Shown piece after piece: positions 7,671-42,354 of a stretch of 64,000 bases of DNA (positions are counted from its first letter, which is position 1; every line of letters starts with the position of its first letter). The position numbers and the translations under genes are program-made. The notes below the pieces were generated by a model. The model searched no databases. It saw only the letters and a list, made by a program, of their open reading frames with translations, and had not been told where the DNA came from. Source of the stretch: an uncultured Bacteroidota bacterium. GTDB lineage: Bacteria > Bacteroidota > Bacteroidia > AKYH767-A > OLB10. Location: NCBI GenBank assembly GCA_900696575.1, contig CAADHD010000025.1:85753-149752 (forward strand), in the 5' to 3' direction.

Positions 7671-8468
7671 TTATTTTACCACAAACCACTCATTCAGCAA
7701 ATCAGGTTTGTTGTATTGCATAAGCTTTCCGGAATGATAATTTAAAACTGCTTTTCCGGCATACATCACCACAGCCTGACCGGCAGCCGTATCCCATTCC
7801 ATAGTGGGAGCCAGGCGAGGATAAACATCAGCAGCACCTTCGGCTACCAGACAAAGTTTTAACGAACTGCCCGATGATTTGAATTCTATGTCTCCATGTT
7901 CATTTTTCAAATCATCAATAAATTTTTCTGTTTCAGAAGAGAGATGTGACCGGCTGGCTACTACCGTAAACTTTCGTCCGTTCTGATTGATGGGCAGGCT
8001 AACGGCTGAACGGATGATATCCTCTGCATTTATTTCCCCGCCCTGATTCCACTCTGCTTTAAAACTGCCTTTAGATTTTTCTCCGAAGTAAATTTTATTC
8101 AATGCCGGAGCATACACCACTCCCAATACCGGAATTTGATTTTCGACAAGTGCGATATTCACTGTAAATTCTCCGTTTCGTTTAATAAACTCTTTGGTAC
8201 CGTCCAACGGATCAACCATCCAGAACGGATTCCAGTTTTTTCTCTCTTCAAAGGGAATGGTTTTGCCTTCTTCGCTCAGAACAGGAAAATAATTTTTGAG
8301 TCTTTCCTGAATTACTTTATGTGAGCTTTTGTCGGCTTCGGTTAATGGTGAGCTGTCATTTTTAAATTCAACATGAAAGCCGGCATTGTAAACCTGCAAT
8401 ATTTCATGACCTGCTTTAAGAGCGGTATCAATTACTTCAGCAAGCAGATGATGGTAACCTTCACTCAT
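7671..8468 (-). CDS. cysQ: 3'(2'),5'-bisphosphate nucleotidase
   Basis: Inositol-monophosphatase-fold motifs (EEGK, WMVDPLDGTKEF). It is the last gene of the cys operon and overlaps cysN by 4 nt. Confidence 0.85.
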   Translation of the reverse strand: MSEGYHHLLAEVIDTALKAGHEILQVYNAGFHVEFKNDSSPLTEADKSSHKVIQERLKNYFPVLSEEGKTIPFEERKNWNPFWMVDPLDGTKEFIKRNGEFTVNIALVENQIPVLGVVYAPALNKIYFGEKSKGSFKAEWNQGGEINAEDIIRSAVSLPINQNGRKFTVVASRSHLSSETEKFIDDLKNEHGDIEFKSSGSSLKLCLVAEGAADVYPRLAPTMEWDTAAGQAVVMYAGKAVLNYHSGKLMQYNKPDLLNEWFVVK

Positions 8469-9754
8469 ATAATCATACCGGCTGCTACGGTTTCATTGGT
8501 TCCTTCGTCAATAAGAATCACGCTTCCGGTTATTCTGTTTTTGCGGTAACTGTCATAAAAAAGAGGAACCGTAGTACGAATCAGGATTCTGCCAATGTCG
8601 TTCATACCGATTTCTTTGTCCTGTTCATTGCGGTGAAGCGAATTAATATCTACTTTATAACGCACATCTTTAATAATGCAGCGGGCTTCTTTGGTGGTAT
8701 GCCTGATAGCATACTTTCCGTTGGGAACAAGTTTCTTATCATTCATCCAGCAAACCATCATGTCAATATCCTGGCCAACGGTTGGTGTATTATTCTCACG
8801 TACAATCATATCGCCTCTGCTGATATCTACATCCGTATCGAGGGTGATGGTAACACTTTGCGGTGAGAATGCTTCGTCAAGCGCTTCGAGTTCACCGTGT
8901 TCAACCTGATGAATGGCTGTAATCTGAGCGGCAAAACCCGATGGCAATACTTTTACCTTATCGCCCGGTTTAAATACCCCGCTGGCAATACGGCCGGCAT
9001 AGCCTCTGTAATCATGAAACTCCTTTTGCTGCGGCCGGATAACATACTGAACCGGAAAGCGGCAGTCAATATGGTTTTCATCACCGGTAATATGAACATG
9101 CTCTAACAAATAAAGCAAGGTAGGGCCCTGATACCAGTCCATGTTCTGCGAGCGTTCAACTACATTATCTCCATTTAAAGCACTGATAGGTATGAAGTGT
9201 ACATCTTTTACATCCAGTTTTGAGGATAGCTTTTTATACTCCTGAACAATTCCTTCAAAAACCACTTCACTGTATTCAACCAGATCCATTTTGTTGATGC
9301 AGACAATGATATGCGGAATACCAAGCAGTGAAGCAATGAATGAATGACGGTTGGTTTGCTCAACCACGCCTTTTCGTGCATCAATCAGTATAATGGCAAG
9401 GTTGGCAGTGGAAGCACCTGTTACCATATTGCGCGTGTACTGAATATGGCCTGGCGTATCGGCAATGATGAATTTCCTTTTAGGAGTAGCAAAATACCGG
9501 TAAGCCACATCAATAGTGATTCCCTGTTCGCGCTCGGCTTTTAATCCATCGGTTACTAAAGAGAGGTCAACGTGACTGAATCCTTTGCGCCTGCTGGTTT
9601 GTTCAACCGCTTCAAGCTGATCTTCAAAAATGGCTTTGCAGTCTAAAAGTAAACGTCCAATCAATGTGCTTTTGCCATCATCCACGCTGCCTGCCGTTGT
9701 AAAGCGCAGCAGTTCCATGTTTAAATAAGATTCCTGATTAAACGGGGGGGACAT
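8465..9754 (-). CDS. cysN: sulfate adenylyltransferase subunit 1 (GTPase)
   Basis: GTPase motifs GSVDDGKST, DTPGH and NKMD, plus an EF-Tu-like domain II. Confidence 0.9.
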   Translation of the reverse strand: MSPPFNQESYLNMELLRFTTAGSVDDGKSTLIGRLLLDCKAIFEDQLEAVEQTSRRKGFSHVDLSLVTDGLKAEREQGITIDVAYRYFATPKRKFIIADTPGHIQYTRNMVTGASTANLAIILIDARKGVVEQTNRHSFIASLLGIPHIIVCINKMDLVEYSEVVFEGIVQEYKKLSSKLDVKDVHFIPISALNGDNVVERSQNMDWYQGPTLLYLLEHVHITGDENHIDCRFPVQYVIRPQQKEFHDYRGYAGRIASGVFKPGDKVKVLPSGFAAQITAIHQVEHGELEALDEAFSPQSVTITLDTDVDISRGDMIVRENNTPTVGQDIDMMVCWMNDKKLVPNGKYAIRHTTKEARCIIKDVRYKVDINSLHRNEQDKEIGMNDIGRILIRTTVPLFYDSYRKNRITGSVILIDEGTNETVAAGMII

Positions 9755-9898
9755 ATTTTTTTTGAGTTAAAACTTATCTGGTGAGTGGTGTGCTTTGTTC
9801 GAAATAAGAATGATAGTTCTGAACGGGGTTTTTAGAGTCAGGAACTTTTAGTCAGTCATTTTTTATCTTCCATCTAAATACTCTGTACTGAGAACTGC

Positions 9899-10828
9899 CT
9901 AAAAATACCCGGCTTTCTTCCTGTCTTCCATGGCTGTTTCGGAGCGTTTGTCATCTGCCCGTGTTCCGCGTTCGGTAACACGGCTGGCAGCTACTTCAAT
10001 GATAATATCATCAATACTTGCAGCCGGTGAAAGTACAGCGCCAGTGCAGGTCATATCGCCAATAGTACGAAAGCGGACTCTCATGCGCTGCGGCTTTTCA
10101 TCTTCGCGCAGATACAGATAATCAGACTTTGCAAGAATCATATTGCCACGCGAAATGCAATCGCGTTCATGGGAAAAATAAAGATTTGGAAGTTCAATTT
10201 TTTCCATGGCAATGTATTGCCAGATGTCAAGTTCTGTCCAGTTACTTAATGGAAAAATTCTAAAATGCTCACCTGCATGTCTTCGTGCATTGAACAGATA
10301 CCACAATTCGGGCCGTTGGTTCTTCGGATCCCATTGGCTGAACTCATCACGATGAGAAAAAAAGCGCTCTTTAGCTCTGGCTTTTTCTTCGTCTCTTCGG
10401 GCTCCGCCCAAAGCAGCATCCACTTTTAATTCTTCAAGTGCATCGAGCAACGTAACGGTTTGCAAAAGATTACGGCTGGCATTCGGGCCTTTTTCTTCGG
10501 TAGCACGGCCTTTATCAATACTGTCTTGCACAAAGCGTACTTCAAGCCGTACACCTAATTTGTTCACCAGGTTATCGCGATACTCTATCGTCTCAGGAAA
10601 GTTGTGGCCGGTATCAATGTGAAGCAACGGAAACGGAATACGTGCCGGGTAAAAAGCTTTATAGGCAAGATGCGTCATTACAATGCTGTCTTTTCCGCCT
10701 GAAAAAAGCAGTACAGGATGTTCAAACTGGGCTGCCGCTTCTCTTATTACGAATATGGCTTCTGATTCCAACTGATGCAAATGGCTCAGGTGATAGTAGT
10801 GCATGTTATCTGATCTGTAACGTAACAT
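9899..10828 (-). CDS. cysD: sulfate adenylyltransferase subunit 2
   Basis: PAPS-reductase-fold PP-loop SGGKDS and the conserved CysD C-terminus. Confidence 0.9.
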
Positions 10829-11474
10829 AATTAATGATGTGGCTTACGGATTCTTCAATAGATTGTTGCTGGGTATTAACTTCAATTTCGGGATTTAAGG
10901 GAGGCTCATAAGGTGAACTAATCCCGGTAAAATCTTTTATTTCTCCGGCTCTTGCTTTTTTATAAAGACCTTTAGTATCGCGCTGCTCGCAGACTTCAAG
11001 AGGGCAGTTGACATATACTTCAATAAAATCCTTGTCTTTCATTATGGAACGTACCATGGTTCTGTCTTCACGGAATGGCGATATAAAAGCAGTAAGCGTT
11101 ACAATTCCGGCATCGTTAAAAAGTTTGGCTACTTCCCCAATTCTGCGGATGTTTTCCTTACGGCCTGCTTCGCTAAAATCAACATTGCTGTTCAGCCCAT
11201 GGCGGATGTTATCGCCATCAAGCAGGTAAGTATGAATTCCCATAGCAGCCAATTTTTCCTCTACGGCTCCGGCAATTGTACTTTTTCCCGAACCGGAAAG
11301 GCCTGTAAACCAAACCACACAACTGCGGTGGCCGTTTAGCTTTTCACGGTCCTTTCGCGTAATTTTATGATGATGATAAACAATGTTCAAACGCTCTCTC
11401 TTTTTCGGTTCGTTACTAACGAGGTGCGAAGGTACATAAATGGAGGTTACCATGTTTGAATTCTGCAATTTCAA
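10806..11474 (-). CDS. cysC: adenylyl-sulfate (APS) kinase
   Basis: P-loop [11 protein letters not shown] and the APS kinase fold. It overlaps the cysD start by 23 nt. Confidence 0.9.
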
Positions 11475-15800: not shown

Positions 15801-18800
15801 ATGGCTACTTCCTTAACTGCCAAACAAAAAGACATGCTCGAACGGTTTAACCATACCGATGTCAGCTTTCCGGATTTAACCCTTGCTGCCCTTTTCAATC
15901 TTCAGGTTATTTCAACTCCCGGAGCGGAAGCAGTACGTTACCACCAACATTCGCTTACTTATTCTCAACTGAATCAGAAAGCAAACCGGTTAGCACATTT
16001 TTTAAGAAGAAAAGGAGCCGGGCGAAATGAGTATATCGGCCTATGTGTTGACCGCTCCCTGGAAATGGCATGGAGCATTTTGGGTATCCTTAAATCAGGT
16101 GCTGCTTATGTTCCGTTTGATGCCTTTTATCCAATGGAAAGAATTAGCTACATGATTCGCCAGTCGGACATCAAAACCGTAATGGTTCAGAAAGAATATA
16201 CCTCGCTCTTCAACAGTTCAGGAATTGAGGTAATCACTTTTGAAGAGCTTGATGATTTGTTGAAAAACGAAAACCCGGAAAATCCGCAGGTAATCAATCA
16301 GCCTGACGATGCCGCTTATGTGCTTTTTACATCCGGCTCTACCGGTAATCCTAAAGGGGTGGAGATGATTCACAGGGCACTGATTAATCTTCTGCATTGG
16401 CAAAACACAAAAACCACCTTAGGTACAAAAGCCGTTACGCTTCAGTTTGCTCCCGTAAGTTTTGATGTTTCATTTCAGGAATTTTTTTCCACGTGGACAA
16501 CAGGCGGCTGTATTGTCATGATAGATGATGATTTCCGTTTGAATGCTGTCAAACTTTTGCATTTCATCGAAGATCAGAAAATTGAAAGATTATTTCTTCC
16601 ATTCATTGCCCTGCAGTATCTGGCTCAGGTAGCTGTTGAAAGTAACATTTTTCCAAAGTGTTTGAAAGATGTCATCACAGCCGGTGAGCAACTGCGCATT
16701 ACGGCTGCCATCCGGAAGTTTTTTACTGAGTTGCCGCATACTAAACTTCACAACCATTATGGCCCTACAGAAACACATGTTATCACTGCTTTCACTTTGC
16801 CTGTTGATGTTTCCCGATGGACAGAATTACCCCCTATAGGCACACCCATTTCAAACACTAAAATTTTTTTACTGAATGATGCCATGCTTCCGGTTGAAAT
16901 TGGTGAAGAAGGCGAACTCTATGCAGCGGGTGAAGCGCTGGCGCGCGGTTATATTCACGCAGAGGAATTGACCAATGAGCGGTTTCTGAAAAATCCGTTT
17001 GGCGAAGGAAGAATTTACAAGACAGGCGACCTGGCCCGTTATCTGCCCGATGGCAACATTGAATACTTAGGCCGTGCCGATGGACAAGTAAAAGTACGCG
17101 GATACCGTATTGAACTGGCTGAAGTTGAATCAGCCGTTGAAAAATGGCAAGACGTAAAACAGGCCGTTGCCATTGTGCGTGAAGATGAGCCGGGCAATAA
17201 AAAATTGGCTGTGTATGTGAGGATGAAAGAAGAAAAAAATTTCAGTCCGGCTAAAATCCGTTCACACCTGAAAGCCATTCTGCCTGATTACATGATATCA
17301 TCATTCATTGTTCAGGTAAATGATTTCCCGAGAACACCCAGCGGAAAAATTGATAAACGTTCGCTGCCGAAACCTGATAATAAACGCCCCGATCTTGGCA
17401 ATGTATTTATGGAGCCGGCAAGTGATCTACAGAAACTGTTAGCCGCACTCTGGTGCGATTTGCTCGGAATTGACCATGCCGGAACGGAAGATAATTTCTT
17501 CGACCTTGGAGGAAATTCTCTGCTTGCACTCCAAATGATTGCCCGATTGAAAACAGAACATGGCTATGATTTGCCGGTCGTAAAACTTTACCGGCATCCT
17601 ACCATCAAAGGCATTGAAAAAGATTTATCCGGAAATGATTCAGAATCCTTTTATGATAAAGCCCATGCACGGCTGAAAAAAGAAAAAGTTCCTGCAGAAA
17701 TTAAATCGGTGGAAGACGGTATTGCCATCATCGGCATGGCCGGCAAATTTCCGGGAGCAAAAAATACGGATGAGCTATGGCAGATTCTTGAACAGGGAAA
17801 AGAAACCACAAAGTTTTTCAGCAAGGAAGAATTAGACAGCACTATTCCTGAGGAAATAAAAAATGATCCCTCCTATGTGGCTGCACGCGGAGTAATTGAT
17901 GATTCCGACAAGTTTGATGCAGCCTTCTTCGGTATGAATCCCAAAGTGGCTGAGCTGATGGATCCGCAGCAACGAGTCATGCTTGAAACAGCCTGGGCTG
18001 CACTGGAAAATTCCGGATATACTGCCGATAAATTTCAAGGGCTTATTGGCGTTTTTGCCGGTATGGGTAATAACACATATTTTACACACAATGTTCTTTC
18101 CGATAAAGAAGCCATTGAACGGGTAGGTTCATTTCTGGTGATGACAGCCAATGAGAAAGATTACATTGCTACGCGCATTGCGCATGAGATGAACCTTAAA
18201 GGTCCTGCCATTAGTATTCATACTGGTTGTTCGACTTCGCTTGTTGCTGTGGCTTCTGCCTTTGAGAGTTTGTTAAACCATAAATGCGATATGGCTTTAG
18301 CAGGCGGAGTGTCCATTACCTCGCCTGTAAACAGCGGGCATTTATATAACGAAGGCGGTATGTTTTCTTCTGATGGCCATACCCGCCCGTTTGATGCCAA
18401 AGCCACCGGCACTGTGTTCAGCGATGGCTGTGGTGTGGTGGTTATGAAACGTTACAGCGATGCCGTACACGATGGCGATACCATTCATGCCGTTATCCGT
18501 GGTGCTGCATTGAATAATGACGGTGCGGAGAAAGCCAGTTTTACTGCACCCAGTGTGGAAGGCCAGGCTATGGTTGTTGCCATGGCGCAGGCTCAGGCAG
18601 GCATTGAACCCGATTCAATTACTTATATTGAAACGCATGGAACTGCAACTCCTCTTGGCGATCCTATCGAAGTGGAAGCGCTCACCCTTGCTTTCAGGGA
18701 TAAAACCGATAAAAAACAATTCTGTGCAATTGGTTCCGTAAAAAGCAATTTCGGGCATCTTACTCCTGCTGCCGGTGTAACCGGTCTGATTAAAACAGTG

Positions 18801-21800
18801 CTGGCCATGAGGAATAAAAAAATTCCGGCCACACTGCACTTCTGTTCTCCTAATCCGGCTATTGATTTTGAAAACAGCCCGTTTTATGTAAATAATAAAC
18901 TGATTGACTGGAAAACCGATGACATTCCGCGAAGGGCTGGAATCAGTTCTTTTGGCGTAGGCGGAACCAATGTGCATGTGATTGTGGAAGAACCCCCCGA
19001 ACAGCGGCCCTCGGGCATTGCAAGTAGCAGGCATCTGATGCTGATTTCGGCCAAAACAGAAAATGCATTGGAAGAATCAACTTCCAATCTTAAAACTTAT
19101 TTATCCGGTAATCCCGGAATCAATCTGGCTGATGCTGCTTATACTCTTCAAACCGGAAGAAAACATTTCCATCACCGTAGGTTTCTAGTATGCAGTAATC
19201 ACCAGTTTGATACTATCACTCCAAAAAATTCAGGTAGCAGAAAATTAGAATCACCGGCCACGGGCGTAGTATTTATGTTTCCCGGTCAGGGCTCGCAGTA
19301 TGCCGGCATGGGACAGAATCTTTACCGCGATGAAATGGTTTTTAAACATGCCGTTGATCAATGTGCCGCTCAGTTCGAAAAGCATCTGAAACGCGACATA
19401 CGCCAAATACTTTTTCCTTCACCTGAAAAAGTATCAGAAGCGGATCAACTCATCAAAGAAACCGTTTATACACAGTCCACACTTTTCACCATAGGGTATG
19501 CATTATCCGAATTATGGATGAGTTGGGGAATGAAACCTTCAGCGCTCATCGGCCACAGTATTGGCGAGTATGCAGCCGCCTGCATTGCCGGAATCATGTC
19601 GCTTGAAGATGCCTGTTTCCTGGTAGCCCATCGCGGAAGCATGATGCAAAGCATGCCACCGGGAAGTATGCTCAGCGTTAGGGCTGCCCATGCTGAAGTG
19701 GAAAAACATCTTAGCCCTAAACTTTCCATTGCCGCCATTAACGGGCCGGAACTCTGTGTGGTGGCAGGTGAATCTTCAGAAGTTGAAAAACTGCAAACCG
19801 AACTGGAGAAAAAAGAAATCGTCTGCAAATTGCTGGCTACCTCTCATGCTTTTCATTCGGTAATGATGGAGCCTGTGGTAATACCCTTTGAAGAAAAAGT
19901 AAGAAGCATAAAATTAAATGAGCCTCAAATTCCGGTTTTTTCAACTGTTACGGCCAACCTGATGAAGCCCGAAGAAGCAACCGATGCCTCATACTGGAGT
20001 AACCAGATACGTAAGCCTGTTCGTTTTGCCGAAGGCATTCAAACCATCTGGAAAGCACATCCGGGTTATGTAATGCTTGAACTTGGCCCGCGTAATACGG
20101 CCACTACCATGGCGCGGCAGCAAAGTGCCGACCCTAAAAAACAAATTGCCATTCCTTCGCTTGGAGATACCAGCCTGAACGATGCCGAATGGGAATCCAT
20201 GTTTTCAGCCATTGGGCAATTGTGGCTTTGCGGATTGGAAATAAACTGGCAGAACTTTTATGCGTTAGAAACCAGAAATCGTGTTCCGCTGCCTACTTAT
20301 CCGTTTGAAAGAAAACGATACTGGAAAGATGTTTTTCCGGAAAAACAACAACCTTCAATGCAACCGGTGCCCGCACCTACCGTTTTAACCACACCTGAAA
20401 TCAATTATCCTGTTCAAAAAATTATTACCTCACAAGAAAATACTGCCATGACAAACAGAAAAGAAAGGCTGATGGCCGAATTAAAAGATATGTTTGAAGA
20501 TGCATCAGGAATTGACATGAAAAATGCAAACCCCGATGTTTCCTTCCTCGAAATAGGTCTTGATTCATTATTTCTGACTCAATCTGCATTAAGTATTTCC
20601 AAACGATATGGAGTTAAAGTTACCTTCCGTCAATTGAATGACGACTTAAGTTCACTTTCTGCTCTTACTTCTTATCTGGATAATAAACTTCCGGCCGAAG
20701 CATCCACACCCCCTTCCTCTTCAGCAACCACACAGCCACCCTCTTCGCTTTTATCCGTTAACGTCCCTCCGTCCTTACCGCCCGGCACCTCCAATCTTAA
20801 CCTGTTCATGATGCAGCAAATGCAGATGATGCAGATGATGATGCAACAGATGATGCAGCAAAACACACCACAGCCGGTTGCCCCTTCAGTGCAGGCTCAC
20901 ATTGAAAAAAGCGTGGAAATAAAATCGCATACCAAAAAAGAAGACATTACGGAAAACGAAAAAGCTGATCTGGCAAAACCTTTTGGCGCTATTGCCCGCA
21001 TTGAAAAATCAGGCCATGCAGAACTGACCGAAACCCAGAAAAAATGGCTGAGCGATTTCTTGGATAAATACATCAGCAAAACCAAAAAATCAAAGACCTA
21101 CTGTCAGGAATACCGATCCTGGCTGGCCGACCCGCGCGTGGTAACCGGTTTTAAACCTGCCTTAAAAGAAATCATTTATCAGGTAGTAGTCAACAAATCA
21201 AAAGGGGTTAAGATGTGGGATCTGGATGGCAATGAATATGTAGATGTTTTAAATGGTTTCGGAAGCAATTTCTTCGGATGGGGCTGCGATGTGCTGTTGA
21301 ATGTTTGGAAAAAGCAATTGGAAGAAGGCGTTGAACTGGGCCCGCAGACTCCGCTGGCTGGCGAATGCGCCAGGCTGATTTGCGAGCTAACCGGCTACGA
21401 CCGCGCTGGTTTCTGCAACACAGGCAGCGAAGCTGTGCTGGGTGCCATGCGCATTGCGCGTACTGTAACCGGTAAGAACCTGATTGTATGTTTTAACGGC
21501 TCTTATCACGGAATCAATGATGAGGTAATTGTAAGGGGAACAAAGTCCCTGAAATCATTTCCTGCTGCTGCCGGTATTCCGAAAGAAAGCGTGCAGAATA
21601 TGCTCGTTCTTGATTACGGAACCAAAGAATCGCTCGACATCATTAAAGAGCGTATTGACGAGATAGCGGCTGTGTTGATAGAACCGATTCAAAGCCGCAG
21701 GGCTTATTTTCATCCTCGTGAATTCATACATGATGTAAGAAAAGTTACCCAGGAGAATGGAGTACTGATGATTTTTGATGAAGTGATAACCGGTTTCCGT

Positions 21801-22532
21801 TTACGTCTTGGCGGAGCTCAGGAATACTACAATGTAAAAGCTGACCTGAGTACTTACGGAAAAGTAATCGGAGGCAACATGCCCATTGGCGCTATCGCAG
21901 GTCGCAGGGAATTTATGGATGCTTTAGATGGTGGCTTCTGGCAGTTTGGAGATAACTCGGTTCCCGAAGTAGGGGTTACATATTTTGCCGGAACATTTGT
22001 CCGTCATCCTTTAGCCATGGCTGCCATGAAAGAAGTTTTATTGTACCTCAAAAGAGAAGGCAAGCCGCTGTACGAAAAACTGAATGCAAAAACACTTCGC
22101 CTGACCGAAGAAGTAAACGCACATTCAAAACAGTTGGGTTCTCCTTTCAAATTAGTAACCTTCGGTTCGTTATTTAAAGGTAAATGGGAAACAGAACCGC
22201 AGTTCACTGAATTGTTATTTGCCTTAATGCGTTACAAAGGTGTACACATAATGGATGGATTCCCTTGCTTCTTAACCCTGGCTTATACTGATGCTGATGT
22301 TGATTTTGTAATTAAATGTTTCAAAGAATCATTGAGCGAACTCTGTTCACTGGGTTTCATTCCAACAGCGAAAGCAAATGGAATTTCATCAAACGGTTCA
22401 ACCGGACACGCAAATGCCCAAACCATGCCTCCCGTTCCTGGAGCTAAGCTTGGTAAAGATGCCAATGGCAAGCCTGCCTGGTTTATTCCTGACCCGGAAA
22501 GGCCCGGTAAGTATATGCAGGTGATGAAATAA
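15801..22532 (+). CDS. hybrid NRPS-PKS megasynthase. The domain order is adenylation (aa 25-525), PCP (Ser573), ketosynthase (aa 640-1065, Cys810), malonyl-specific acyltransferase (aa 1155-1450, Ser1253), ACP (Ser1589), an M/Q-rich linker, then a class-III (GSA-like) aminotransferase (aa 1770-2180, Lys2021).
   Basis: A motifs LFTSGSTGNPKG (A3), FDVSF (A4, Asp present), NHYGPTE (A5), YKTGDLARY (A7), GRADGQVKVRGYRIELAEVE (A8), PSGKIDK (A10). PCP has GGNSL. KS has HTGCSTS, ETHGTATPLGDP and NFGHL. AT has GQGSQ, GHSIGE and HAFHS. ACP has GLDSL. The aminotransferase has DEVITGFR and the PLP-lysine motif YGKVIGGN. Catalytic residues were verified at nt 17517, 18228, 19557, 20565 and 21861. Confidence 0.9.
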   Translation: MATSLTAKQKDMLERFNHTDVSFPDLTLAALFNLQVISTPGAEAVRYHQHSLTYSQLNQKANRLAHFLRRKGAGRNEYIGLCVDRSLEMAWSILGILKSGAAYVPFDAFYPMERISYMIRQSDIKTVMVQKEYTSLFNSSGIEVITFEELDDLLKNENPENPQVINQPDDAAYVLFTSGSTGNPKGVEMIHRALINLLHWQNTKTTLGTKAVTLQFAPVSFDVSFQEFFSTWTTGGCIVMIDDDFRLNAVKLLHFIEDQKIERLFLPFIALQYLAQVAVESNIFPKCLKDVITAGEQLRITAAIRKFFTELPHTKLHNHYGPTETHVITAFTLPVDVSRWTELPPIGTPISNTKIFLLNDAMLPVEIGEEGELYAAGEALARGYIHAEELTNERFLKNPFGEGRIYKTGDLARYLPDGNIEYLGRADGQVKVRGYRIELAEVESAVEKWQDVKQAVAIVREDEPGNKKLAVYVRMKEEKNFSPAKIRSHLKAILPDYMISSFIVQVNDFPRTPSGKIDKRSLPKPDNKRPDLGNVFMEPASDLQKLLAALWCDLLGIDHAGTEDNFFDLGGNSLLALQMIARLKTEHGYDLPVVKLYRHPTIKGIEKDLSGNDSESFYDKAHARLKKEKVPAEIKSVEDGIAIIGMAGKFPGAKNTDELWQILEQGKETTKFFSKEELDSTIPEEIKNDPSYVAARGVIDDSDKFDAAFFGMNPKVAELMDPQQRVMLETAWAALENSGYTADKFQGLIGVFAGMGNNTYFTHNVLSDKEAIERVGSFLVMTANEKDYIATRIAHEMNLKGPAISIHTGCSTSLVAVASAFESLLNHKCDMALAGGVSITSPVNSGHLYNEGGMFSSDGHTRPFDAKATGTVFSDGCGVVVMKRYSDAVHDGDTIHAVIRGAALNNDGAEKASFTAPSVEGQAMVVAMAQAQAGIEPDSITYIETHGTATPLGDPIEVEALTLAFRDKTDKKQFCAIGSVKSNFGHLTPAAGVTGLIKTVLAMRNKKIPATLHFCSPNPAIDFENSPFYVNNKLIDWKTDDIPRRAGISSFGVGGTNVHVIVEEPPEQRPSGIASSRHLMLISAKTENALEESTSNLKTYLSGNPGINLADAAYTLQTGRKHFHHRRFLVCSNHQFDTITPKNSGSRKLESPATGVVFMFPGQGSQYAGMGQNLYRDEMVFKHAVDQCAAQFEKHLKRDIRQILFPSPEKVSEADQLIKETVYTQSTLFTIGYALSELWMSWGMKPSALIGHSIGEYAAACIAGIMSLEDACFLVAHRGSMMQSMPPGSMLSVRAAHAEVEKHLSPKLSIAAINGPELCVVAGESSEVEKLQTELEKKEIVCKLLATSHAFHSVMMEPVVIPFEEKVRSIKLNEPQIPVFSTVTANLMKPEEATDASYWSNQIRKPVRFAEGIQTIWKAHPGYVMLELGPRNTATTMARQQSADPKKQIAIPSLGDTSLNDAEWESMFSAIGQLWLCGLEINWQNFYALETRNRVPLPTYPFERKRYWKDVFPEKQQPSMQPVPAPTVLTTPEINYPVQKIITSQENTAMTNRKERLMAELKDMFEDASGIDMKNANPDVSFLEIGLDSLFLTQSALSISKRYGVKVTFRQLNDDLSSLSALTSYLDNKLPAEASTPPSSSATTQPPSSLLSVNVPPSLPPGTSNLNLFMMQQMQMMQMMMQQMMQQNTPQPVAPSVQAHIEKSVEIKSHTKKEDITENEKADLAKPFGAIARIEKSGHAELTETQKKWLSDFLDKYISKTKKSKTYCQEYRSWLADPRVVTGFKPALKEIIYQVVVNKSKGVKMWDLDGNEYVDVLNGFGSNFFGWGCDVLLNVWKKQLEEGVELGPQTPLAGECARLICELTGYDRAGFCNTGSEAVLGAMRIARTVTGKNLIVCFNGSYHGINDEVIVRGTKSLKSFPAAAGIPKESVQNMLVLDYGTKESLDIIKERIDEIAAVLIEPIQSRRAYFHPREFIHDVRKVTQENGVLMIFDEVITGFRLRLGGAQEYYNVKADLSTYGKVIGGNMPIGAIAGRREFMDALDGGFWQFGDNSVPEVGVTYFAGTFVRHPLAMAAMKEVLLYLKREGKPLYEKLNAKTLRLTEEVNAHSKQLGSPFKLVTFGSLFKGKWETEPQFTELLFALMRYKGVHIMDGFPCFLTLAYTDADVDFVIKCFKESLSELCSLGFIPTAKANGISSNGSTGHANAQTMPPVPGAKLGKDANGKPAWFIPDPERPGKYMQVMK

Positions 22533-25664: not shown

Positions 25665-26656
25665 TGCACGATATTGTATTTGCACAACCCGGTTACTTCT
25701 GGCTGCTGCTGCTCATTCCGGTTATGATTGCTTATGAATTTCTTGTAGCAAGAAAAAAAAGACCGCAGATAATTTATTCCGACCTTGAACCCTTTGAAAA
25801 AAAACCGTTGACTTTCAGAGAACGATTTGTGAATACTCCGTTGTTTTTACGCTCTGTTGCTGTTGCTTTGATTATCGCAGCACTTGCGCGGCCGCAGTCA
25901 TCATCAAAAAGCACCAGCGTAACTACTGAAGGAATTGCCATTATGCTGGCTATGGACCTTTCAAGCTCCATGTTAGCCGAAGATTTAAAACCCAACCGGG
26001 TTGAAGCGGCCAGAAAAACAGCTATTGATTTTGTTGATGCACGAACAAATGACATGATTGGCCTCGTGATTTTCAGCGGTGAATCGTTTACCCAATGTCC
26101 GTTAACAAGCGACCATGCCGTGTTAAAAAACATGATTGCCAAAATGAAAAGCGGAATGCTGCTTGACGGAACCGCTATTGGCGAAGGATTGGCAACTGCC
26201 ATTTCACGGCTCAAAGACAGTCCTGCAAAAAGTAAAGTCATCATTCTTTTAACTGACGGAGTAAACAATGCAGGCGCTATTGCTCCGGTTACTGCCGGAG
26301 AGATTGCAAAGTCCTTCGGTATTCGTGTTTATACTATCGGAGTCGGCAAGCAGGGCATGGCTCCCTACCCGGTGAAAACTCCATTCGGCATTCAATATGT
26401 AAACCAGGAAGTACAGATTGACGAAGACATCATGAAACAGATTTCATCGGCTACCGATGCCAAATACTTCCGCGCTACCGACAATAAAAGTTTGAAAAAC
26501 ATTTATGCAGAAATTGACAAACTGGAAAAGACCAAGGTGGAAGTTTCGGAATACAAACGATACAGCGAAGAATACCTGCCATGGTTGTTGGCAGCCGGTT
26601 TGTTTCTTCTATTGGAAATGGTTTTACGCTACACTTTATTCAGAACATTGCCATGA
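25661..26656 (+). CDS. batA: aerotolerance protein BatA (vWA domain)
   Basis: Two N-terminal TM helices and a vWA MIDAS motif DLSSSM. Confidence 0.8.
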   Translation: MMHDIVFAQPGYFWLLLLIPVMIAYEFLVARKKRPQIIYSDLEPFEKKPLTFRERFVNTPLFLRSVAVALIIAALARPQSSSKSTSVTTEGIAIMLAMDLSSSMLAEDLKPNRVEAARKTAIDFVDARTNDMIGLVIFSGESFTQCPLTSDHAVLKNMIAKMKSGMLLDGTAIGEGLATAISRLKDSPAKSKVIILLTDGVNNAGAIAPVTAGEIAKSFGIRVYTIGVGKQGMAPYPVKTPFGIQYVNQEVQIDEDIMKQISSATDAKYFRATDNKSLKNIYAEIDKLEKTKVEVSEYKRYSEEYLPWLLAAGLFLLLEMVLRYTLFRTLP

Positions 26657-27699
26657 TACGCTTTGCAAATCCCGAATTCCTGTGGCTGCTGGCCGTGATT
26701 CCCGCTATGACATTCATTTTTATTTTAATGCTATGGTGGAGAAAACGGGCATTAAAAAGATGGAGCGATACTGAATTACTTGGAAATCTGATACCGACAA
26801 AATCCTCTGTAAAACCTGTTATTCGGTTTGTGCTGCTGATGCTGGCATCGGCTTCCATAATACTTGCCATTGCCCGTCCGCAAATAGGAACAAAGATGGA
26901 AGAAGTAAAACGCAAAGGCTCTGACATCATGATTTGCCTGGATGTAAGCAATTCCATGAATGCAGAAGATATACGCCCTACCAGACTGGAGCGCAGCAAG
27001 CAGGCAATTTACCGCATGATTGAAAAATTGCGGGGAGACAGAATCGGATTAATTGTGTTTGCCGGTCAGGCTTATGTACAGTTGCCCATTACTACCGATT
27101 ACAGCGCTGCCAAACTTTTTCTTTCTACCGTCAGTACCGATATGGTACCCACACAGGGAACTGCCATTGGTGCAGCCATTGACCTTGCCATGGAAAGCAT
27201 TAATGACTCCATAGGAAAGAATACCACTTTTGTAATTATTACCGATGGAGAAAGTCATGAAGACAATCCGGTTGAGAGTGCAAAAGCAGCCGCTGAAAAA
27301 GGAATTGTAATTCATACCATTGGCATGGGGTCGCCCGAAGGGGCACCCATTCCGGTTTATCGAAACGGAATACGTACGGGGTTTATGCAAGATAATTCGG
27401 GAAGTACGGTAATCACCAAAATGAATCCGGTAGCCCTTAGCGAAATTGCAGAAGCCGGCAGAGGAAAATTTGTACAGGCCAGTAATTCGGATGACGGATT
27501 AGACATTATCCTTAAAGAAATCAACGAAATGGAAAAGAAAGAGCTTGGCACTTTGCTTTATACTGATTACGAAGAACAGTATCAGTACTTTATACTGTTT
27601 GCATTGTTATTTCTGATGATGGAGTTTTTGATGAACGAACGCAGAAGCCGCTGGATTGAAAAATTAAAATCAATAGCCGAATACAGAAAAGCCGCATGA
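26653..27699 (+). CDS. batB: aerotolerance protein BatB (vWA domain)
   Basis: Start placed at the ATG that overlaps the batA stop (ATGA). The track's upstream Met at 26581 lies inside batA. MIDAS motif DVSNSM. Confidence 0.8.
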   Translation: MIRFANPEFLWLLAVIPAMTFIFILMLWWRKRALKRWSDTELLGNLIPTKSSVKPVIRFVLLMLASASIILAIARPQIGTKMEEVKRKGSDIMICLDVSNSMNAEDIRPTRLERSKQAIYRMIEKLRGDRIGLIVFAGQAYVQLPITTDYSAAKLFLSTVSTDMVPTQGTAIGAAIDLAMESINDSIGKNTTFVIITDGESHEDNPVESAKAAAEKGIVIHTIGMGSPEGAPIPVYRNGIRTGFMQDNSGSTVITKMNPVALSEIAEAGRGKFVQASNSDDGLDIILKEINEMEKKELGTLLYTDYEEQYQYFILFALLFLMMEFLMNERRSRWIEKLKSIAEYRKAA

Positions 27700-32198: not shown

Positions 32199-32864
32199 AT
32201 GCCATCCCTTACGGCTGAGAATTACCTGAAAACGATTTATCACCTGCTGGAGCAGGAACCTGACGGAGTAACTACCAATACACTGGCCGCTTCGCTCAGT
32301 ATAAAACCCGCTACGGTTACCGACATGCTACGTAAGCTTTCAACAGACAAATTGGTGAAACATGAGAAGTACTATGGCGTTACCTTAACGGATAAAGGCC
32401 GTAAAACAGCACTTGAAATCATCCGCAGACACAGATTATGGGAAGTTTTTCTTGCGCAGAAACTGCAGTTTGCATGGGACGAAGTTCATGACATGGCTGA
32501 GCAGTTAGAGCATGTTCAATCTGATGAATTAATTGAGCGATTAGATAAATTTTTAGGTTATCCGAAAACCGACCCTCATGGCGACCCGATACCTGATAAG
32601 AGAGGAAAAATTTCCATCCATGATTTCAAACCGTTATGTGTACTGACGCAAAAACAAACCGGAGTAATCTCAGGAGTAACGGAACATTCGCCTTCCTTTC
32701 TGCAATACCTCGAAAAAAACGGATTGAGCCTTGGTAATGAGATTGAAGTAATGGAAGTACATGCTTTTGATATGTCAGCCGATGTAAAACTGAATCAGAA
32801 GAAAGTTATTCACCTGAGTTATGATGTAACGAAAAACATTTTGATAAAGCAACATGGAAAGTAA
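32199..32864 (+). CDS. DtxR/MntR-family metal-dependent transcriptional regulator with a C-terminal FeoA-like domain
   Basis: Helix-turn-helix region NTLAASLSIKPATVTDMLRKL, a metal-binding and dimerisation region, and an SH3-like C-terminus. Confidence 0.85.
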   Translation: MPSLTAENYLKTIYHLLEQEPDGVTTNTLAASLSIKPATVTDMLRKLSTDKLVKHEKYYGVTLTDKGRKTALEIIRRHRLWEVFLAQKLQFAWDEVHDMAEQLEHVQSDELIERLDKFLGYPKTDPHGDPIPDKRGKISIHDFKPLCVLTQKQTGVISGVTEHSPSFLQYLEKNGLSLGNEIEVMEVHAFDMSADVKLNQKKVIHLSYDVTKNILIKQHGK

Positions 32865-34728
32865 TACAATACGCCCTTCCCTTTCGGAAGTAAATGCATC
32901 GGTTGACACGAATAAAAAATCTGTCGGAAAAAAACTGCTGGCTTTTTTGGGTCCGGCATATTTAGTCAGTGTCGGGTACATGGATCCGGGTAACTGGGCG
33001 ACCGATCTTGCCGGAGGCAGCAGGTATGGATATACCCTGATATGGGTTTTGCTGATGAGCAACCTGATTGCATTGCTGCTGCAAAGTTTATGCGCCCGGT
33101 TAGGAATAGTGCGCAGCCGCGATCTGGCTCAGGCTTCGCGTGAAATGTATCCGAAGCCCGTCAACTATTTTTTATGGTTTCTTGCCGAAATTGCAATAGC
33201 TGCCACTGATCTTGCCGAAGTTTTAGGGATGGCCATAGGTCTTCAACTGCTCTTTGATATTCCGCTCATGTGGGGAGTAACGATTACCGTACTGGATACC
33301 TTCATCGTATTGCTGCTGCTCAACCGGGGAATGCGCGCCATGGAGGCATTCATCATCACAATGGTTGCCATCATCGGTCTGTGCTTTCTGGCTCAAATGT
33401 TCTTTTCAAAGCCGGATATTGCGGAAGTAGCGGGTGGTTTAATTCCCTCCATTCCTGACAGCACCGCACTTTACATTGCCATTGGAATTATTGGGGCCAC
33501 GGTTATGCCGCATAATCTCTACCTGCATTCTTCTTTAGTACAGACACGCAAGTTTGAGCGAACATCAACAGAAATTAAAAAAGCCATCCGTTTCAATATT
33601 ATTGATTCTGCCATTGCATTAAATATGGCATTTCTTGTAAACTCAGCAATACTGATTCTTGCCGCAGCTACTTTTTATAAAAACGGTTTGTTTGAAGTTG
33701 CAGAAATTCAGGATGCTCATAAACTGCTTGAGCCTTTACTTGGCACTCAATGGGCGCCTGTACTTTTTGCCGTAGCATTGATTGCTGCCGGGCAAAGTTC
33801 AACCGTTACCGGAACCTTAGCCGGTCAAATTGTAATGGAAGGTTATTTAAACATCAGGCTTGCACCTTGGCTCAGGAGGCTGATTACCCGCTTGATTGCC
33901 ATTATTCCCGCATACATCAGCATATCTGTTTTCGGTGAAGGAAGTACCGGTGATTTGCTGGTGTTGTCTCAGGTAATTTTGAGTTTGCAGTTAGGCTTTG
34001 CCATTATTCCGTTGATTCATTTTGTAAGCGACAAAAAAGCAATGGGTCAATTCGCAGCCGGCATGTGGATTAAAATTCTTGCCTGGATTTCTGCTTTGAT
34101 TATCATTGGTTTGAATGTTCAGTTGGTCATTGAAACATTTGGCGAATGGATGACTGGTGAGTATGCCTTTGTCCTTCAACTGACAGTACTCCCGCTGGCA
34201 GTAATCACTCTTGGAGTTTTGTTATACATCTCAATTATGCCCTTATTTAAAGGAATGAAGAAAGAAGAAAGCCGGGTTCCCCATGGATTGTACGATGAGT
34301 TTCAGCTCTCCTCCCCTGTCCCTTACAAAAAAATTGCCGTTACGCTTGACTTCAGTGAACATGATCACCTTGCCATCAATCATGCATTAAAGCAAGGGGG
34401 AAAAGAGGCGGAATACCTGCTTATTCACATCACCGAGTCTCCTACGGCATTTATGTTTGGAAAAGAAACGAGGGACTATGAATCAGAATCGGACAAGATT
34501 AACATGCAGAAATATATTGATAGTCTGACTGCCCTCGGATATAAGTGTACAAAAGTGATTGGCTTCGGCAAACCGCGAAACCAGATACCCAAACTGGTAA
34601 AAGATTTTGATGCTGATCTTTTAGTTATGGGTGCTCACGGACATCAGACCATGAAAGACATTTTGTTTGGTTCAACGGTTAATGCAGTAAGACATAAAGT
34701 AAAAATTCCTGTTCTAATTGTAAGATGA
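32854..34728 (+). CDS. mntH: Nramp-family divalent metal (Mn2+/Fe2+) transporter fused to a C-terminal universal stress protein (UspA) domain
   Basis: Nramp motifs GPAYLVSVGYMDPGNWATDLAGG and MPHNLYLHS across 11-12 TM helices, followed by a roughly 140-aa Usp-like domain (LVMGAHGH...VPVLIV). Confidence 0.85.
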   Translation: MESNTIRPSLSEVNASVDTNKKSVGKKLLAFLGPAYLVSVGYMDPGNWATDLAGGSRYGYTLIWVLLMSNLIALLLQSLCARLGIVRSRDLAQASREMYPKPVNYFLWFLAEIAIAATDLAEVLGMAIGLQLLFDIPLMWGVTITVLDTFIVLLLLNRGMRAMEAFIITMVAIIGLCFLAQMFFSKPDIAEVAGGLIPSIPDSTALYIAIGIIGATVMPHNLYLHSSLVQTRKFERTSTEIKKAIRFNIIDSAIALNMAFLVNSAILILAAATFYKNGLFEVAEIQDAHKLLEPLLGTQWAPVLFAVALIAAGQSSTVTGTLAGQIVMEGYLNIRLAPWLRRLITRLIAIIPAYISISVFGEGSTGDLLVLSQVILSLQLGFAIIPLIHFVSDKKAMGQFAAGMWIKILAWISALIIIGLNVQLVIETFGEWMTGEYAFVLQLTVLPLAVITLGVLLYISIMPLFKGMKKEESRVPHGLYDEFQLSSPVPYKKIAVTLDFSEHDHLAINHALKQGGKEAEYLLIHITESPTAFMFGKETRDYESESDKINMQKYIDSLTALGYKCTKVIGFGKPRNQIPKLVKDFDADLLVMGAHGHQTMKDILFGSTVNAVRHKVKIPVLIVR

Positions 34729-42272: not shown

Positions 42273-42354
42273 AAAATAAAGATTGCCTGCTATTATATTT
42301 TTCACGTATTTTGCTGACGAACCGATTATTATTAAAACTTCAAATTCAACTTTT

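Follow-up and report, generated by a model that had tools for sequence, protein, structure and literature searches.

The closest described systems are MycA and ItuA, the A subunits of the mycosubtilin and iturin synthetases, in which a ketosynthase, an acyltransferase and an acyl carrier protein (KS-AT-ACP) are followed by a class III, pyridoxal phosphate (PLP)-dependent aminotransferase (AMT) domain for amination of the beta-ketoacyl-S-ACP. This activity was shown for the AMT domain of MycA. Here we analyzed a 64-kb stretch of DNA (64,000 nt, referred to as the window) of contig CAADHD010000025.1 from an uncultured Bacteroidota bacterium, which carries a gene for a synthase with the same KS-AT-ACP-AMT core. 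MycA and ItuA are primed with a fatty acid by an acyl-AMP ligase, whereas the window protein would be primed with an amino acid by an adenylation-thiolation (A-T) didomain of the nonribosomal peptide synthetase (NRPS) type. With an amino acid instead of a fatty acid as starter, the product would carry a vicinal diamine. Behind the AMT domain MycA continues with a condensation (C) domain as C-A-T, and so do the partnered or fused relatives of the window protein, but in the window protein itself only a conserved tail of 34 amino acids follows.

Other known enzymes share part of this logic. SwnK, the fungal swainsonine synthase, has the order A-T-KS-AT-KR-ACP-R and converts pipecolate to an indolizidine by ketoreductase (KR) reduction and reductive release by a terminal reductase (R). 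SwnK and the window protein are both single-protein hybrids of an NRPS and a polyketide synthase (PKS) that join a cyclic imino acid and one malonate, with a proposed second ring closure by the ring nitrogen. The KR and terminal reductase that define SwnK, or any short-chain dehydrogenase/reductase (SDR) domain, were not found in the window protein by Pfam; it would aminate the ketone, with a lactam as the only possible bicyclic product, and resembles SwnK in function and logic only. BioA, the 7,8-diaminopelargonate synthase, is a free-standing class III aminotransferase that produces a vicinal diamine from a free acid. Both BioA and the AMT domain would aminate a ketone next to an amine-bearing carbon, but BioA is not the closest relative, and glutamate-1-semialdehyde (GSA) aminomutase-like and MycA-like sequences score higher. 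Lolines are formed in Epichloe by LolC/LolD/LolT-type PLP enzymes from free proline and homoserine derivatives, without a PKS. Pfam annotation of the window showed no LolC/LolD/LolT-type genes, the Lol sequences themselves not being part of the comparison; except, possibly, for the product scaffold the fungal pathway and the window synthase appear unrelated.

The explanation that best accounts for the locus as a whole, and to which we give somewhat better than even chances, is a proline-loading stand-alone A-T-KS-AT-ACP-AMT synthase with release that is independent of a thioesterase (TE). Proline loading, malonate extension and beta-transamination are well supported by the sequence, and the gene represents a derived, solo branch of a widespread cassette. 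The assignment of a Pro-type A domain is by itself routine. The interest lies in a solo, release-less and strongly conserved AMT-terminated synthase and in its widespread, uncharacterized parent cassette. We know of almost no biosynthetic route to beta,gamma-diamino acids, and these are what an amino-acid-primed KS-AT-ACP-AMT module would yield. On a more speculative reading, the parent cassette, which was found in at least 587 species and has Pro, Ser, Thr, Val or Asx starters, would represent an unrecognized class of vicinal-diamine metabolites, and a bacterial 1-aminopyrrolizidin-3-one with a loline-like scaffold would arise from a single enzyme. The solo clade has lost the neighboring release module, yet strong selection has maintained the enzyme, which therefore offers a compact single-gene target for heterologous expression. 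Expression of the solo synthase could reveal either that bacteria make aminopyrrolizidine-type alkaloids by a new route or how separately encoded NRPS-PKS partners work.

The synthase gene is an open reading frame (ORF) of 6732 nt with a stop-free translation of 2243 amino acids. The following features, all on the plus strand, were located in it:

15801 to 22532, plus strand: hybrid NRPS-PKS encoded by a single gene, order A-T-KS-AT-ACP-AMT (ORF list, translation, Pfam)
15912 to 17348, plus strand: A domain, residues 38-516 (Pfam AMP-binding 38-384 and AMP-binding_C 441-516; motif scan; best single-domain solved match TycB module 1)
17436 to 17618, plus strand: T (peptidyl carrier) domain with phosphopantetheine site GGNS573L (Pfam PP-binding 546-606; motif scan)
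17718 to 18842, plus strand: elongating KS with Cys810 (TGCSTS), His946 (ETHGTAT) and His986 (KSNFGH) (Pfam ketoacyl-synt/Ketoacyl-synt_C 640-1014; motifs)
19269 to 20114, plus strand: AT with GHS1253IG and HAFH (1349-1352) (Pfam Acyl_transf_1 1157-1438; motif scan)
20478 to 20690, plus strand: ACP with attachment site GLDS1589L (second Pfam PP-binding stretch; motif scan)
20703 to 20861, plus strand: low-complexity ACP-AMT linker, a Pro/Ser/Thr-rich run followed by MMQQMQMMQMMMQQMMQQ (translation)
21024 to 22367, plus strand: class III PLP-dependent AMT with DEVITGFR (from residue 1993) and PLP lysine K2021 (STYGK) (Pfam Aminotran_3 1794-2150; best solved match 6KFM)
22428 to 22529, plus strand: conserved C-terminal tail of 34 amino acids, PPVPGAKLGKDANGKPAWFIPDPERPGKYMQVMK, a probable docking element (alignments, dN/dS, AlphaFold)

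The stretch at 15870-17390 that had been flagged from the letters and translations (hereafter the sequence-only reading) is the A domain of this synthase. All its core motifs are intact: A3 TSGSTGNPKG, A4 FDVS, A5 NHYGPTE, A7 YKTGD, A8 GRADGQVKVRG and A10 PSGK. Pfam also recognized CurL/RhiE-type KS-AT linkers, but no C, KR, dehydratase (DH), enoylreductase (ER), TE or R domain in the 2243 residues. The protein ends 54 residues past the AMT domain, and no condensation domain follows. The consensus of a 38-sequence alignment also shows a Q/M-rich stretch in the ACP-AMT linker. The GC content of the synthase gene (0.44-0.46 over 16001-22000) is in mild excess of that of its flanks (0.39-0.43), which could reflect coding constraints or foreign origin.

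The sequence-only reading had derived the ten-residue specificity code by eye, using five anchor motifs. A motif scan located all five at the expected places in the ORF, on the plus strand:

16461 to 16475, plus strand: FDVSF, residues 221-225
16590 to 16604, plus strand: LFLPF, residues 264-268
16671 to 16685, plus strand: VITAG, residues 291-295
16752 to 16784, plus strand: NHYGPTETHVI, residues 318-328
17337 to 17348, plus strand: PSGK, residues 513-516

The code was read anew by alignment to GrsA-PheA. The residues DAWTIAAIC of the GrsA sequence used, at positions 235-331, validate the numbering up to 331. Because this sequence sets Lys517 one residue early, the final lysine of the code was taken from the A10 motif. 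MAFFT alignment with GrsA gave D222, V223, Q226, F265, I292, A294 and H319. The same pairwise alignment placed I/T at positions 330/331 by opening a gap after TET, which we regard as an artefact, since phmmer and hmmalign alignments are ungapped in this region. Both phmmer comparison with the first modules of TycB and GrsB (TycB1, GrsB1) and hmmalign to a profile of 61 non-Pro A domains identified V327 and I328 as positions 330/331. Together the alignments to GrsA, TycB1 and GrsB1 gave the following code residues:

16464 to 17348, plus strand: span of the whole code
16464 to 16466, plus strand: D222, followed by V223
16476 to 16478, plus strand: Q226
16590 to 16595, plus strand: L264/F265
16674 to 16676, plus strand: I292
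16680 to 16682, plus strand: A294
16755 to 16757, plus strand: H319
16779 to 16784, plus strand: V327 and I328
17346 to 17348, plus strand: K516

The alignment-derived code is DVQ(F/L)IAHVIK, with position 278 depending on the register (L264/F265). The hand-derived DVQFIAHVIK was thus reproduced exactly by alignment to GrsA-PheA, TycB1 and GrsB1. It was to be abandoned if an alignment differed at three or more positions; the difference was zero or one. In the same ungapped register TycB1 and GrsB1, which are experimentally Pro-specific, read DVQSIAHVV, as compared to the published DVQLIAHVVK, so the published leucine at 278 must be the neighboring residue (ILSLP, VLSFP). If the window protein (RLFLP) is read in the published register, its code becomes DVQLIAHVIK. 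The claimed 8/10 identity to the canonical Pro code DVQLIAHVVK was recovered, and it rises to 9/10 if position 278 is read in the published register. Identity to 17 other canonical codes was at most 4/10. The match to the Pro code is far beyond chance.

The binding pocket as a whole gave the same picture. A 147-residue pocket segment scored 114.5 bits with TycB module 1 and 106.2 bits with GrsB module 1 in phmmer, and the next solved A domain scored 45.3 bits. Both Pro domains share D235, V236, Q239, I299, A301, H322 and V330 with the window A domain, and the alignment from A4 to A5 is ungapped. The window domain differs from them in having Phe instead of Ser at 278 (ungapped register) and Ile instead of Val at 331. 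It also differs in position, initiating PKS extension, whereas TycB1 and GrsB1 reside in elongation modules behind a C domain. Among 121 A domains (120 listed homologues and the window protein), DVQ(L)(F)IAHVVK was the commonest code, occurring in 43; the Ile variant occurred in 14, the window protein included. The core motifs with the equivalents of Asp235 and Lys517, the code and the pocket similarity are those of the Pro-activating class of A domains. The proposal that proline or a very close cyclic analogue is the substrate is supported by the code, the TycB1/GrsB1-like pocket and the 43 canonical codes. On these sequence grounds the substrate of the A domain is very probably L-proline or a closely related cyclic imino acid.

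The further chemistry claimed in the sequence-only reading, extension by malonate and transamination at the beta-carbon, also found support. A HAFH motif in an AT domain indicates selection of malonyl-CoA, and YASH that of methylmalonyl-CoA. The features of a malonyl-specific type I PKS elongation module are all present: the KS triad Cys810/His946/His986, the AT motif GHSxG (here GHSIG) together with the malonyl-type HAFH, and the serine in the DSL motif of the ACP. The AMT domain (residues 1742-2189) has the MycA AMT domain 6KFM as best solved match, with 406.8 bits and an E value of 1.5e-120; the best GSA aminomutase scored 198.4 bits. In the Pfam order it lies directly after the ACP of a KR-less KS-AT-ACP module, as in MycA-type AMT. 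This close relationship, the DEVITGFR motif, the YGK lysine and the lack of KR, DH and ER point to transamination.

To place the synthase in a family, a homologue list was obtained by a word-indexed protein search, and a family map was made by scanning an AMT-domain alignment over one genome per species. The word-indexed search found more than 120 full-length proteins of 2150-2270 amino acids with the same Pfam set, as well as longer relatives of 3150-3480 amino acids in which the same layout continues as C-A-T(-TE), to which we refer as fused forms. The nearest named homologues are annotated as coming from metagenome-assembled genomes (MAGs) of Bacteroidia bacteria. The AMT scan detected at least 599 stretches, of which 587 were confirmed, placing the family in at least 587 species. 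The locus-level results that follow (genera, starter codes and neighbors) describe the best 80 loci of these at least 599 stretches. The family groups are Bacteroidota, Xanthomonadales, Burkholderiales, Myxococcota and Cyanobacteria. An AMT-terminated gene is carried by Pedobacter, Parapedobacter, Mucilaginibacter, Hymenobacter, Spirosoma, Fibrella, Maribacter, Euzebyella and Winogradskyella, by Lysobacter, Luteimonas, Pseudoxanthomonas, Dyella, Rhodanobacter and Dokdonella, and by Janthinobacterium, Aquabacterium, Archangiaceae and Microcoleus. The code of the first A domain varies from Pro-like (DVQ..IAHVVK, DVQ.FMAQVVK, DVQIIFSQVVK) to Ser-like DVWHLSLIVK, canonical Thr DFWNIGMVHK, Val-like DA[FL]WLGGTAK and Asx-like DLTKIGHIGK. 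Because of this variation the family looks like a general machine that would join any amino acid to malonate and aminate the beta-carbon. A number of Flavobacteriales MAGs (L017, L026, L036, L053, L057, L068, L074 and L081) combine an unusual first code, DVQ(I)IFSQVVK, with a partner A domain of the Val/Ile type instead of Gly.

The synthase is therefore not an isolated curiosity but a derived solo member of a very widespread, uncharacterized family. NCBIfam has no equivalog model for it, and only the generic adenylation-domain model passes its cut-off. Literature searches on the domain string, Bacteroidetes NRPS-PKS, vicinal diamines and aminopyrrolizidines gave no characterized member and no assigned product; the sole relevant match was a table entry in a 2013 survey. 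This entry lists Pedobacter heparinus C6XWU5 as A-CP-KS-AT-CP-PLP1 with a predicted Nrp-Mal-Gly chain, no product and no assigned A substrate (PMC3870968). C6XWU5 has the domain order and the GSA-like PLP class of the window protein and belongs to the partnered form; its predicted chain agrees with the Gly codes that we found in partner proteins.

In 69 of the 80 loci an NRPS gene starting with a C domain lies directly downstream on the same strand, and an Sfp-type phosphopantetheinyl transferase (PPTase) gene is found nearby in 34. The typical partner is a C-A-T-TE protein of about 1340 amino acids with an A domain that is mostly of the Gly type (DILQLGLIWK and close variants), or of the Val or Ile type in the Flavobacteriales subgroup. 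In Maribacter (L040, L048, L079) the order is inverted, with C-A-T-TE upstream of the AMT-terminated gene and the PPTase downstream. In the Maribacter stop-to-stop ORF the A domain begins only after some 260 residues, and the start codon is uncertain. Four homologues with 55-59% identity to the window protein (P0025, P0032, P0038 and P0045, the last identical to L004) have the three-gene cassette in a conserved setting. With 55-66% identity to cassette members and a conserved tail, the window protein is orthologous to the first gene of the cassette.

The adjacent C-A-T-TE and PPTase genes are absent from the window locus, where TilS lies upstream and MoxR, DUF58 and BatA-E lie downstream. Annotation of the whole window revealed no other biosynthetic gene, PPTase or thioesterase, and a six-frame motif search of its 64 kb found no HHxxxDG motif of a C domain. 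All six homologues with at least 63% identity that were checked are solo: the window protein, P0002 (syntenic with the window), P0006, P0012, P0018 and P0019. The five further orthologues are 63-89% identical to the window protein, and the six loci sit in five different housekeeping contexts. Within 8-10 kb of these five orthologues we found no NRPS partner or PPTase. In a neighbor-joining tree, the 21 clusters with at least 63% identity form one clade beside the partnered clades. Independent solo genes occur in Fibrella forsythiae HMF5405 and in another Bacteroidia MAG.

Some solo loci have neighbors of their own. Two possible tailoring genes, for an SDR and an S-adenosylmethionine (SAM)-dependent methyltransferase, lie immediately upstream of solo gene P0018 in the same orientation (L084, 8467-9864); the window lacks both. 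An arginyl-tRNA synthetase gene is the immediate neighbor of two different solo genes (L002, 8034-9836; L007, 11517-13304), and L002 also has an arginase and an Orn/Arg decarboxylase. This adjacency may be coincidence or a link to ornithine/proline metabolism.

Comparison with the 89%-identical orthologue in L083 gave an overall dN/dS of 0.067 at a dS of ca. 0.95. Per domain the ratio was 0.081 for A, 0.038 for KS, 0.068 for AT, 0.138 for ACP, 0.027 for AMT and 0.038 for the C-terminal tail, all below 0.18. The solo synthase gene is thus functional and under strong purifying selection, with AMT as its most conserved domain. It is highly improbable that the gene is a nonfunctional relic of a cassette that has lost its partner genes: although partner and PPTase are absent from the locus, the 6.7-kb frame is intact with all catalytic motifs present, the solo clade has diverged to 63% identity at full length, and the dN/dS at this dS effectively excludes pseudogenization.

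The tail, with the pattern PPVPGAxLGKxxxGxPxWFxPDPxRPGKY, ends all split forms, whether solo or partnered, and ten of its positions are invariant in 38 sequences. Fused forms run straight into the C domain without it, and they also miss the VDFDPF(A) motif found at the N-terminus of separate partners (the set compared included L003, L004, L006, P0074, P0066 and P0073). The AlphaFold model predicts three short beta-strands for the tail (pLDDT 75-83) behind a disordered linker (pLDDT <50); the model that covers the AMT domain has a mean pLDDT of 77. Since tail and VDFDPF occur in split forms and both are lost in fusions, the simplest reading is a docking pair, and by its sequence distribution the combination looks like an undescribed one. 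A six-frame search found no partner-type VDFDPF N-terminus in the window or at the five other solo loci, whereas the positive controls L085 and L089 were detected.

A different signal comes from positions that are conserved within the solo and the partnered group but discriminate between them. Of 17 such positions, 14 lie among the 249 conserved positions of the AMT domain and only 3 among the 623 in the rest of the protein (Fisher p = 5e-6). Those in the AMT domain include T1850, L2003, N2026, M2073, M2076, E2078 and K2117. Several adjoin the PLP lysine loop; N2026 is in the GGG loop, five residues past the PLP lysine, and L2003 is beside the GFR motif. The concentration of substitutions suggests a functional shift of the AMT domain coinciding with the loss of the neighbor, and hints at a changed AMT role in the solo clade. 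As to product release, the tail and the AMT substitutions pull in opposite ways.

These observations can be combined in a reaction scheme. L-proline, or a very close cyclic imino acid, would be activated by the A domain and loaded on Ser573 of the T domain. The AT domain would place malonyl on the ACP, and condensation by the KS domain would give 3-oxo-3-(pyrrolidin-2-yl)propanoyl-S-ACP, as the intact catalytic motifs suggest. The MycA-type AMT domain would then turn the beta-ketone into an amine, leaving ACP-bound 3-amino-3-(pyrrolidin-2-yl)propanoate, a vicinal diamine; homology to a biochemically characterized domain and the absence of reductive domains point to this step. Extension and amination by this route are probable. 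Release is encoded neither in cis nor within the 64 kb; in the usual cassette the second gene, for C-A(Gly)-T-TE, would provide for it. In the solo synthase the intermediate would leave without a TE, mainly by aminolysis by the ring nitrogen with formation of a five-membered lactam, 1-aminopyrrolizidin-3-one, or alternatively by hydrolysis to the free diamino acid. TE-independent release is the most likely outcome for the solo clade, at a little less than even chances. The exact product 1-aminopyrrolizidin-3-one, proposed in the sequence-only reading, is chemically coherent but can be assigned only tentatively. Still more speculative is the view that the solo clade would constitute a one-enzyme pathway, in which the partner was lost and a self-releasing AMT-terminated synthase, with its burst of clade-specific AMT substitutions, makes this compound from proline, malonyl-CoA and an amine donor.

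Several points weigh against self-release of a proline-derived lactam. The tail is kept under purifying selection in solo proteins and is missing from fused relatives, and if it is half of a docking pair, an unlinked partner is predicted for the solo enzymes. Partnered relatives condense the diamino thioester, which implies that the enzyme-bound beta,gamma-diamino thioester lives long enough for this and that lactamization is not necessarily fast. The beta-keto intermediate could cyclize before transamination. The register ambiguity at 278 and the Ile in place of Val at 331 would be compatible with a proline analogue. No PPTase is encoded nearby. Throughout, function in this family is assigned from sequence.

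The strongest competitor, with a substantial though clearly smaller chance, keeps the same chemistry up to the ACP-bound beta-amino intermediate and lets the tail dock to a C-A-T-TE protein whose gene lies at another place in the genome. As in the partnered relatives, this would yield a (3-amino-3-pyrrolidin-2-yl-propanoyl)-Gly-type dipeptide or a cyclized form. The frequency of C-domain-first genes downstream (69/80) and of PPTase genes (34/80) fits this, as do the mostly Gly-type partners in the three-gene cassettes at 55-59% identity. Retention of the tail in solo proteins, with a dN/dS of 0.038 and ten invariant positions, its loss together with VDFDPF in fusions, and its predicted fold as a small beta module after a disordered linker are also in agreement with such a partner. 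However, neither the 64 kb examined here nor the 8-10 kb around the five other solo loci contain such a gene, the cassette PPTase is missing from the locus as well, and interacting NRPS genes rarely stay separated in the long term. The fixed AMT substitutions of the solo clade suggest a changed role, and the docking function of the tail is itself deduced from sequence patterns.

Stand-alone release of a proline-derived product would also have to be modified if the A domain loads an analogue such as pipecolate, 4-methyl- or 4-hydroxyproline, azetidine-2-carboxylate or a dehydroproline, which we consider unlikely. The code DVQFIAHVAK is linked to 4-methylproline in cyanobacterial synthetases, and the window code has Ile instead of the canonical Val at 331 and a register-dependent residue at 278; variants such as DVQ.IAHVAK, DVQ.MAQVVK and DVQIFSQVVK exist in the family. 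Against this, the code matches that for Pro at 8-9 of 10 positions, among solved structures the pocket is closest to two genuine Pro domains, which lead by more than 60 bits, and sister orthologues have the exact canonical residues. The window annotation showed no gene for making a modified proline near the synthase.

Slightly less probable still is release before transamination, by attack of the ring nitrogen on the beta-ketoacyl thioester. This would give pyrrolizidine-1,3-dione, a bicyclic tetramic acid, after which the AMT domain acts on the free dione or is bypassed. Gamma-amino-beta-keto thioesters are classical tetramic acid precursors, and ahead of the A domain there is neither N-acylation nor a protecting C domain. 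On the other hand, the AMT domain is the most strongly conserved part of the synthase (dN/dS 0.027), its homologue in MycA acts on substrates bound to an ACP, and the partnered relatives evidently pass their intermediate through AMT to the C domain.

The rest of the window is core housekeeping. Divergently upstream of the synthase lie TilS, a Wzy_C protein, a tetratricopeptide repeat (TPR) protein and cysC/cysD/cysN/cysQ; downstream on the same strand follow MoxR-DUF58-BatA-BatB-BatC-BatD-BatE, and then PyrD, a DtxR-type regulator and an Nramp-Usp fusion. The remaining genes encode FtsH, CdsA, methylmalonyl-CoA mutase, CoaD, RsmD, a TonB-dependent receptor, DapB, an M4 protease secreted by the type IX secretion system (T9SS), a thiolase, a multicopper oxidase, TrmD, a desaturase, a DEAD helicase and the start of the Nuo operon. 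The T9SS sorting domains, together with the Bat operon, are marks of a Bacteroidota chromosome. Rfam gave no match anywhere in the window, and hence no riboswitch upstream of the synthase; a sigma-70 promoter and terminator scan, which is not suited to Bacteroidota, performed no better than on shuffled sequence. The main neighboring features are:

7671 to 11474, minus strand: sulfate-activation cluster of a cysQ-like phosphatase, cysN, cysD and cysC (APS kinase), syntenic in L083
22765 to 31074, directly downstream of the synthase: complete aerotolerance-type operon MoxR-DUF58-(unknown)-BatA-BatB-BatC(TPR)-BatD-BatE(TPR-SH3)
32199 to 34728: DtxR/MntR-type metal repressor with FeoA domain, then an Nramp transporter fused to a universal stress protein domain
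42283 to 46680: thermolysin-type (M4) secreted protease of 1465 amino acids with propeptide, several PKD/Ig domains and a T9SS C-terminal sorting domain, annotated start TTG

The 1465-residue ORF at 42283-46680 was considered as the missing NRPS partner and rejected, since it encodes the PKD-containing M4 protease with its T9SS tail. The BatB ORF (26581-27699) overlaps BatA by 76 nt, and the orthologous BatB in L083 is called shorter; the true BatB start is probably later than listed.

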